Assembly: GCA_964016885.1 (NCBI GenBank)
Contig: OZ024743.1
Span: forward strand, 259,842,001 to 259,906,000
Origin: Eledone cirrhosa
Lineage: Eukaryota
Direction: 5' to 3'
DNA: 64,000 nt
The position numbers and the translations under genes were made by a program. Below the pieces are notes generated by a model. The model saw nothing but the letters and a program-made list of their open reading frames with translations, was not told where the DNA came from and did not search any database. Of the stretch, positions 13,544-59,703 are shown piece after piece (the first letter of the stretch is position 1; each line of letters opens with the position of its first letter).

Positions 13544-15444
13544 TTAGATATTGTTATATTTAATATACTTCTCCCAATATTGCTGCAAATTGCTTGTGTA
13601 ATTCTTATATACGTTAGAAAAATAACCGGATACCTTGTTTATTTCCCTATTATAGTTGTTAAAATAGTTGTAATAGCGGTGAATATAATCACGTGACACT
13701 TTTGATGTATTCTCCTTCATTTGTTGGTAAATTTTTTTGAAGTTATTTCGTGCCACGTCATAAGCATCATGTATTAATTGGCGCGTTTTACTGAATGCTT
13801 TATTAACTTTTAACCAGGAATCAGCCCATGTCTTTCTTACAACTTCCTGAGCTTTAGCGATCGGTTGAATAGCGAAGTGTTTTATTTTCCTCACTGAAAT
13901 CCAAATCGTAGATAGTTGCTTTAATGTCGTATGCAGGAGAAGTTTTGTTTTTATATAAACTTTATTAGCAGATTCAGCTCCGAGCTGATATATTCTCTTA
14001 GCTGTTCGAATCACTGTCACAATCATTTTCGGCTTCTTGTCAGATCTGTATACGGTCGATGAAAATCGTTCCTGATAATGGGTCTTGTTAACTTTCTTCA
14101 GAAGAAAATTGAATGATCTTACACTCGCAGTAGTTGTTTCCTGGCGGGAAATATCAAATAATATTGGCCTATAAGTTGTTTTGTTCAGTGGCGTTGATTC
14201 TGATGATGTAGGTGTATGCGTGGTTTTGTTCTTTATTAACATTGATTGTGATAAAGTTGAATTTCGTGTAGTTATGTTCCTCAGTAACGTTGAATTTAAG
14301 TATTTTGATTTTTGTGTAGATTCTTTCTTCAGTGACATTGATTGTGGTGACGTTGCTATCTGTGTAGGTTCATTCGGAAACACTTTGTCCTGTGTCGTTA
14401 CAGCTAATGTGGTGTTTTGCTTGCAGTAAATCATTTTAGATGACAGGAACCGTCTTTTAATATTTGCTTTGCTTTTATATTCAATATGTGGATCACCTGC
14501 TTTTGTATTTAAATAACCGACTCTCCTCCGTTTTGCTTTCATCCAAATTTGCACACACGGGAAATTTTCAGCTGATGTGTCTGTAACTTCCTCTAGATAT
14601 CCCAATGTCTTTTTCAATATTCCCTCTCTATCTATAATTGCTGAACTGGATTTTGTGGGTACCGGTAATAAGTCATCCATAGTTTCTGATAGCCACGTGA
14701 ATGCTTCGTTCGGCTTTTCAATATATTTTGTACCAACATTAGAAATTGGTGGTATGATGAAATCAAAGGACGACCAACAAATATTGACTTTTTTTGAAAA
14801 TTTCAAAAATGTACTATTAAGTTTATTTGATTGGAATATTTTAATAACCAAACAATCGGTAACAATTATGGGTGGTCTTATTGTTATTATTGTTGCAGGC
14901 AAATAAACCCTCTCAACATTTAGTGAATCTGAACTATAGGTATTCGAACTGGTTGTTAAATGTAAGTCTTTTTCCGATGTAGTCTTCCCCATGGTCGTGT
15001 TAGATTTCATTGCGTGAGCTTTTGTCGCCGATATGTTTGATGTAGTATTGGTTATATCAAGATAAACTTCAGATGATGTGCTGGTTGTCCCATATTGAAT
15101 TGTTTCACTTTTATTATTTTCCTGTCCTACCTCTATTTCCTTAATTCCTTTAGTGTATGTTGTAACAATGTTATTAGCGTGTGTATTTCTTGTGTCAAAT
15201 AAATTTGTTGGTTGCTTTTCTGTAGATTTTATGTCAGATGAAATACTTGTACCTGTATATTGATAGCTACTCTCAAGTCCAGACTTAACACTCGTTGATG
15301 ATAAGAAATCACTATCTTGACACATATCTCCGCTGGTTTCCTTAGGGCAATCACATTTAAAACTATTTATTCTGTCGTTGCAAATGCCACCATGTAAACA
15401 AGGGTTGCTGCTGCACTCATTAATATCCACTTCGCATCTTGAAC
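13544..15444 (-). CDS. Delta-like gene terminal coding exon (1.9 kb): EGF5, Ser/Thr-rich glycosylated stalk and basic/aromatic C-terminus
   Basis: ttgtag|[52 protein letters not shown], then about 585 stop-free codons in AT-rich DNA (ORF 13544..15430), ending at TAA. Confidence 0.85.

Positions 15445-59703: not shown

Follow-up and report, generated by a model that had tools for sequence, protein, structure and literature searches.

A gene in the 64,000-nucleotide stretch of Eledone cirrhosa DNA analyzed here (the window) is a real and conserved member of the DSL family, apparently an undescribed variant, and carries a new domain at the C-terminus. Its stalk ends in a basic helical domain and not in a membrane-spanning helix, and its product is therefore likely secreted and surface-sticking. 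Judged from its sequence, the protein has probably lost conventional Notch signaling.

Gene model and domain organization

Seven exons of the gene lie on the minus strand of the window. All are bounded by AG and GT; joined, they read as a 930-aa frame that contains only one stop. Exons 1 and 2, found with the orthologues, lie beyond the window end; exon 1, from which translation of the signal peptide starts, has its first position at G000:C4:259928201, which places the gene start outside the window, and exon 2 is located at L003:862-684. The full model comprises nine exons and 1005 aa over 72.7 kb and is open from the signal peptide to the stop. It encodes a signal peptide with a hydrophobic core and a V-K-A cleavage-type motif (by inspection and hydropathy), a C2/MNNL domain, a DSL domain, five EGF repeats, and a 591-aa tail, in this order.

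Exon 3 (59574..59703) encodes the middle of C2/MNNL, and exon 4 (58885..59039) encodes the end of C2, including an acidic loop (D-x-D) where Jagged has its calcium ligand. Exon 5 (53044..53180) encodes the DSL domain, whose six-Cys scaffold is intact (the last Cys lies in exon 6) and whose Notch-contact face is replaced by an acidic loop. The donor of exon 5 (CAG/GTTGAT) is weak, and the orthologues read through the same junction. Exon 6 (31915..32037) encodes the end of DSL and EGF1, which is classical and not of the DOS type; its equivalent is skipped in isoform X2 of O. bimaculoides. EGF2 and the start of EGF3 are encoded by exon 7 (29432..29601), and the remainder of EGF3 and EGF4 by exon 8 (16119..16296). 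The terminal exon 9 (13544..15444; 1901 nt) encodes EGF5, stalk 1, domain A, stalk 2, domain B, and the stop. A candidate poly(A) signal, AATAAA, is located 19 nt after the stop (13519..13524, minus strand). An additional EGF exon considered near 20377 was rejected, as it does not encode an EGF.

Pfam assigned the DSL exon to PF01414 with 33.7 bits (cut-off, 24.2). The MNNL family (PF07657) scored 30.8 bits on exon 2 and 62.5 bits on the Argonauta orthologue, and the exon at 59574-59702 gave 19.6 bits, below the cut-off. The single frame, the Pfam matches, and the count of five EGF repeats bear out the original prediction of an MNNL-DSL-5EGF protein assembled from seven exons. The head domains showed 59-75% identity to the Octopus and Argonauta proteins, which marks the window as octopod DNA; identities to three orthologues were 72-73% for C2, 67-71% for DSL, and 59-75% for the EGF repeats.

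Several repeats were observed around these exons. An AT microsatellite of about 1.1 kb (12250-13390) starts 150 nt past the stop. The intron between exons 7 and 8 contains a near-complete Helitron (23922-28726, plus strand) with STPR repeats, Rep, and a PIF1 helicase, interrupted by stops and frameshifts. Decayed retroelement pieces are present in the introns at 16958-17930 (plus), 38707-39701 (plus), and 46139-47467 (minus). Judging by their translations, they appear to be the C-termini of RTE/LINE-like elements and a piece of a Penelope-like element; in Pfam, one of them matched only zinc fingers and another matched nothing.

The C-terminal end lacks a transmembrane helix

The tail, predicted at about 585 aa, measured 591 aa and contained 14 N-glycosylation sequons. 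The predicted absence of a transmembrane (TM) helix, an intracellular domain, and a PDZ-type end was confirmed by hydropathy and by the orthologues, which end likewise. The best 19-aa Kyte-Doolittle window of the tail scored 1.71 and was interrupted by R, P, P, D, and K; it corresponds to the first strand of the conserved domain A and is polar in the orthologues, and a hidden TM helix in the tail was rejected. As a control, the TM helix of Delta1 from the same genome scored 3.18 over 21 aa. The maximum 19-aa score was 1.11-1.50 in seven homologues, 1.31 in the paralogue exon, and at most 1.46 in all 30 further family rows, none of which was TM-like (six unrelated rows were set aside). The final 25 aa are polar (mean, -1.18) and thus do not form a GPI-type end; no PDZ motif is conserved either, as the residues at the C-terminus vary among the orthologues.

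A search with the tail retrieved four proteins among 7771 candidates (from O. bimaculoides, O. vulgaris, Argonauta, and one contig), all with the same end point and without a TM helix. The three RefSeq isoforms of O. bimaculoides all share the same TM-less tail, as does the O. sinensis protein; RefSeq isoforms of this sort rest on RNA-seq. P0013, a more distantly related orthologue (head identity, 49%; eight EGF repeats by our count), is encoded in full, from the signal peptide to an end without a TM helix, by individual contigs of 4901, 4765, and 4974 nt, with the complete frame in three of the 15 cluster members listed. These contigs are presumably spliced transcripts, because they hold the whole frame in less than 5 kb, versus a CDS span of 72.7 kb in E. 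cirrhosa. Because the Octopus and Argonauta orthologues end alike and the distant orthologue is whole on single contigs, the missing TM helix cannot be put down to faulty annotation.

The main mRNA might instead splice from EGF5 to a downstream TM-encoding exon, as had been raised in the original prediction, with the long exon representing read-through or a minor form. The last exon does contain five possible internal GT donors, but conservation extends to the stop in all orthologues and the paralogue, and entire TM-less frames occur on single short contigs. Moreover, an ORF-based scan of 133 kb downstream yielded no TM candidates and recovered the Delta1 TM control, with a few probable false hits in control regions. 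A splice-anchored scan also returned no hits, yet it missed the Delta1 control as well, and only the ORF-based scan is therefore counted as evidence. Such a TM isoform is highly improbable. The results support a protein without a TM helix or an intracellular domain, which would be secreted.

Two conserved domains lie within the mucin-like tail

The four segments of the tail, all on the minus strand, differ in composition and conservation. Stalk 1 (14864..15316) contains 34% Ser/Thr and four sequons and is 21-37% identical to the orthologues, and stalk 2 (14123..14413) contains 36% Ser/Thr and five sequons with 24-47% identity. Domain A (14414..14863; about 150 aa) has four conserved Cys and 55-57% identity. 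Domain B (13547..14122; core, 14035-13547) carries a net charge of +27, forms Tyr/Trp-rich amphipathic helices, and is 65-71% identical to the orthologues. Domain B (about 160 aa) is about as conserved as C2 (65-71% vs 72-73%), and the stalks show 21-47%. The tail, long and glycosylated in the original prediction, is not a plain glycosylated spacer, as it includes two conserved domains.

Neither domain passed any Pfam cut-off, and the structural models of domains A and B were of low confidence (pLDDT 53 and 59, respectively). The domain A model was alpha/beta; Foldseek gave no match at E 0.001 or better, and the best Z by VIA was 4.5. The SEA fold of membrane mucins had no Pfam match in domain A, the low-confidence model of which reached a best Z of 4.5. 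Structure comparison yielded no fold match for domain B, and Atlas matches of 0.78 and 0.83 were discarded as below the useful level. Domain B is a conserved, apparently undescribed domain without a Pfam or fold match.

Domain B was predicted as long helices, including a straight amphipathic helix of about 150 aa in the low-confidence model. Its mean hydrophobic moment was reached by none of 500 shuffles in six of seven sequences and by one of 500 in the seventh, and its net charge ranged from +22 to +31 across the seven sequences. The hydrophobic period was 99-100 degrees (3.6 residues), indicating a straight amphipathic helix and not a heptad coil. On the last helix, aromatic residues make up nearly all of one face and form a stripe. 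Tandem amphipathic helices, as in exchangeable apolipoproteins, were present in domain B. Its hydrophobic face may bind lipid, judged from the sequence pattern, or could instead pack on domain A or on itself.

The head retains its scaffold and has lost the Notch face

The original prediction left the relation of the head to Notch between two options, and the residues known to contact Notch bear on both. In Jagged1, the Notch face consists of F199, R201, R203, and F207 (PMC3415683), and R203K or F207A abolishes Notch binding (PMC5538765, PMC3888931). Aligned to Jagged1 and DLL1, the E. cirrhosa protein has H, V, T, and G at these positions (0/4), with D205 kept. The face was 0/4 in the Argonauta orthologue and the paralogue and 1/4 in two Octopus orthologues and P0013; the orthologues retain at most R203, which is kept in three of five. 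The canonical ligands of the same genome keep the face (L065, 3/4; L067, 4/4; L068, 2/4), suggesting that the receptor surface is conventional. The DSL domain is 67-71% identical among orthologues and is therefore under selection for something, possibly Notch.

A DOS-type EGF after DSL gave no Pfam match above the cut-off, and PF21700 appeared only at E 0.9 in one of three full orthologues scanned. Delta1 and L067 of the same genome show short DOS repeats, whereas a classical EGF follows DSL in this protein. Since its DSL exon ends one motif earlier than that of Delta1, exon shuffling may have occurred. In a tree from 46 DSL columns, the protein did not group with Delta1, L067, or L068, a placement of weak support. 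At two C2 positions, Jagged has calcium-binding Asp and DLL4 has Arg/His, according to PMC5538765; both Jagged-type Asp residues are present in all five orthologues.

Distribution of the family

A paralogue is arranged head-to-head with the gene (G000:C4:259939165-260109519, plus strand; last exon, L032:2795-9519) and encodes about 2500 aa. Its probable start is about 11 kb from that of the E. cirrhosa gene described above, and six further exons form an open 2477-aa frame with C2, DSL, EGF, stalk, domain A, and domain B. Only one EGF of the paralogue is complete; its stalk, built of Thr-Glu-Thr repeats, measures about 1900 aa, and one of its introns spans 141 kb. The domain B sequences of the two genes are 31% identical (E 5.6e-18), and a genome search for domain B found only these two matches among 150 scored of 375 candidates. 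Domain A matched weakly by profile (hhalign, E 0.016; BLAST, E 0.001), and its homology is backed by four Cys in register, with z of 3.3-4.8 over shuffles in all 10 pairs.

Both genes are present in O. bimaculoides and, under consecutive accessions, in Argonauta, and a Sepia pharaonis fragment matches the paralogue. Orthologues of the gene described here are XP_014785782 and XP_029644226. The O. bimaculoides orthologue of the paralogue, XP_014785705 ('mucin-5AC-like'), appears to be mis-annotated at the N-terminus. Stalk length varies within the family from about 150 aa to over 1800 aa. A search for homologues of the head region returned only two proteins among 264 candidates.

The domain B profile gave 22 matches among 1.84 billion proteins, consisting of eight strong cephalopod-type proteins, eight weaker mucin-type proteins or fragments, and six generic helical repeats. 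Named weaker matches were from Littorina, Batillaria, and Gigantopelta (10 of the 18 new matches were looked up), and the relatives carry 'mucin-like' source labels. A reciprocal profile built from seven non-cephalopod matches scored the E. cirrhosa protein at 59.5 bits, versus a maximum of 9.5 bits for 200 shuffles. The bacterial-type helical repeats P0017, P0018, P0022, P0024, P0025, and P0027 were dropped, with reciprocal scores of 14.9 bits or less.

Other DSL exons were also observed in this genome. The exon pairs L065 and L066 (C6) and L074 and L075 (C2) are identical at the protein level and lie 78 kb and 187 kb apart, respectively, and represent recent duplications or assembly duplicates. 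L069, L070, and L072 (G000:C2:90.87-90.97 Mb) form a cluster of three divergent DSL exons, also without the Notch face.

Possible functions of the protein

The reading we prefer, at roughly even chances given what the sequence offers, is that of a secreted DSL-mucin that would adhere via domain B and act mainly outside canonical Notch activation. The protein would be secreted, and its stalks would be O-glycosylated and extend it. Attachment would occur at the C-terminal end, where the basic amphipathic helices may bind a membrane or an anionic matrix; the pattern of domain B suggests that it may rest on a lipid or polyanion surface, replacing the TM helix as the anchor. The C2 tip may still bind Ca2+ and phospholipid, and the molecule could then link two surfaces, with the length of the stalk fixing the gap between them. 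The protein would serve as a tether or as a mucin with a surface or adhesive role, and not to activate Notch. It may have originated in molluscs by the joining of a DSL-ligand head to the terminal exon of an EGF-mucin.

Of the two functional options in the original prediction, a co-opted non-Notch role fits better than a Notch modulator or decoy, because the DSL domain lacks the Notch-binding face and there are no DOS repeats. A secreted modulator, acting as a weak-binding decoy or as a DOS-less co-ligand like DSL-1 and kept near cells by domain B, is a clearly less probable explanation. The C2-DSL scaffold is intact (67-73% orthologue identity), and O-fucose consensus sites occur in four of the five EGF repeats and O-glucose sites in three. 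According to PMC2504490, soluble DOS-less DSL ligands act on LIN-12. Hilgers et al. 2018 describe two radula-specific stem-mollusc genes with EGF and DSL that were read as Notch ligands (PMC5995198) and are possible relatives of this family. The modulator reading is weakened by the complete loss of the Notch-face residues, by the variation of this face among orthologues when it is retained in the genome's own canonical ligands, and by the lack of an endocytic tail.

Two further explanations give domain B a different task, and both are unlikely. In the slightly less improbable one, the protein is a purely structural matrix or adhesive protein whose domain B self-assembles, coacervates with polyanions, binds chitin, or is Tyr-cross-linked, with no lipid role. 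Domain B has 15 Tyr and 31 Lys/Arg in 163 aa, the head is acidic (DSL, -9; EGF repeats, -15) versus the basic tail (+27), the stalk varies widely in length, and the relatives are named 'mucin-like'; the radula genes (PMC5995198) provide a further lead. Against this, the vWD and cystine-knot domains of gel-forming mucins gave no Pfam match in the exon scanned, the orthologues, or the paralogue, the period of domain B is not that of a heptad, and the C2 calcium residues are kept. The other explanation, which we rate lowest of those concerning domain B, is a particle-borne long-range ligand: acting like an exchangeable apolipoprotein, domain B would load the DSL head on lipoproteins or vesicles for clustered, force-bearing presentation. 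It draws on the straight amphipathic helix of about 150 aa, weak Pfam signals below threshold for ApoO (E 0.14) and for Apo-CII (E 0.05), and generic apolipoprotein-like repeats among weak HMMER matches. However, all apolipoprotein matches were under the cut-off, the repeats failed the reciprocal test, domain B is poor in acidic residues, and the Notch face is degenerate.

Extending the preferred reading of a secreted, adhering DSL-mucin to a whole mollusc family that is apparently undescribed, we tentatively propose, at somewhat less than even chances, that the amphipathic helical domain replaces the TM helix as a reversible membrane or particle anchor. The Notch-ligand head, with its C2 lipid-binding tip, could then be shown at a tunable distance on any surface. 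Either the Notch-ligand scaffold would have become a membrane tether with two ends, or Notch input could be delivered where no sender cell performs endocytosis. Textbooks treat Notch ligands as the prime example of proteins that depend on a membrane anchor and on the pull of endocytosis. A conserved cephalopod gene pair in which the ligand head is kept, the Notch face is lost, and the anchor is swapped for a helical domain is a natural test of C2 and DSL roles apart from Notch. Domain B also defines an unannotated mollusc mucin-like family, now labelled 'uncharacterized', 'mucin-5AC-like', or 'Notch homolog 2', and the result cautions against taking every mollusc DSL gene for a Notch ligand.

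Comparison with known DSL proteins

A literature search covering few subscription papers found no description of the C2-DSL-EGF-mucin-domain A/B architecture, and terms for the accessions and loci of the family had no occurrence in the related literature searched. The available sections of PMC10970066 contained no mention of such a gene. Family accessions and test peptides were not found among the rows listed in octopus mucus and ink proteome tables (PMC10138644, PMC10142993).

Gastropod proteins annotated as 'mucin-2-like' or 'mucin-17-like' (XP_070199909, KAG5689563, XP_041365633) resemble the E. cirrhosa protein in having a long Ser/Thr stalk and a terminal domain B homologue without a TM helix. 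EGF repeats are present in some, and a shorter domain B ends these EGF-mucins. Unlike the E. cirrhosa protein, they have no domain A, and no DSL or C2 is found in their records, which look incomplete at the N-terminus.

One Delta-family protein without Notch binding in the assay of PMC5538765 is vertebrate DLL3, which also bound no liposomes there. DLL3 is a TM protein; the E. cirrhosa protein is TM-less and keeps the C2 Asp residues.

The original prediction stated that soluble DSL proteins are known mainly from nematodes. In the nematode ligands, the DSL face is also divergent. According to PMC2504490, nematode DSL ligands have no DOS, may be soluble, and nonetheless activate LIN-12. C. elegans DSL-1 is a secreted DSL protein without DOS (PMC2504490, PMC3415683); the E. 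cirrhosa protein likewise lacks DOS and would be secreted. DSL-1 is small, has one EGF, and activates LIN-12, and unlike the E. cirrhosa protein it is not known to have a mucin stalk or a helical tail.

The statement about nematodes is incomplete, as He et al. 2021 reported a TM-less Delta2 in molluscs (PMC8166818), though this is a different gene. Identity with Delta2 was rejected: the Delta2 accessions are XP_014771450 and XP_029644317, distinct from the orthologues of the gene described here. Like the latter, Delta2 is mollusc-restricted with a reported absence of the TM helix (PMC8166818), but Delta2 is shortened by an early stop, whereas the E. cirrhosa protein is lengthened by a new tail. 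The set of 138 DSL-family genes in that study may include the present gene. A Delta-type gene of this genome (L067/L086; G000:C4:237513287-237520860, minus strand) has the full Notch face (4/4) and DOS-type EGF repeats, and its frame stops just after a hydrophobic, GPI-signal-like C-terminal stretch. L067 is probably the Delta2 of this genome, and Delta2, said to have lost its TM helix, may instead be GPI-anchored.

Gazave et al. 2017 define Delta, Delta-like, and DSL-like proteins (PMC5356439). By these definitions, the E. cirrhosa protein shares the signal peptide, MNNL/C2, and DSL of Delta; it has five EGF repeats, where Delta has at least nine, and lacks the TM helix and intracellular domain of Delta and Delta-like proteins. 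It also lacks the 16 EGF repeats and VWC domain of Jagged/Serrate. Among the classes of PMC5356439, as given there, it fits only DSL-like, a descriptive and not functional class in which DSL is combined with another conserved domain, here domains A and B. Its head is closest to Delta/Delta-like 1 (PDB 4xbm), the best PDB match (E 8e-62 with the Argonauta orthologue), with which it shares the signal peptide, C2/MNNL, DSL, and an EGF array. Compared with Delta, the protein is without DOS EGF repeats, a TM helix, an intracellular domain, and the Notch face, and has instead a 591-aa tail of mucin stalks and domains A and B.
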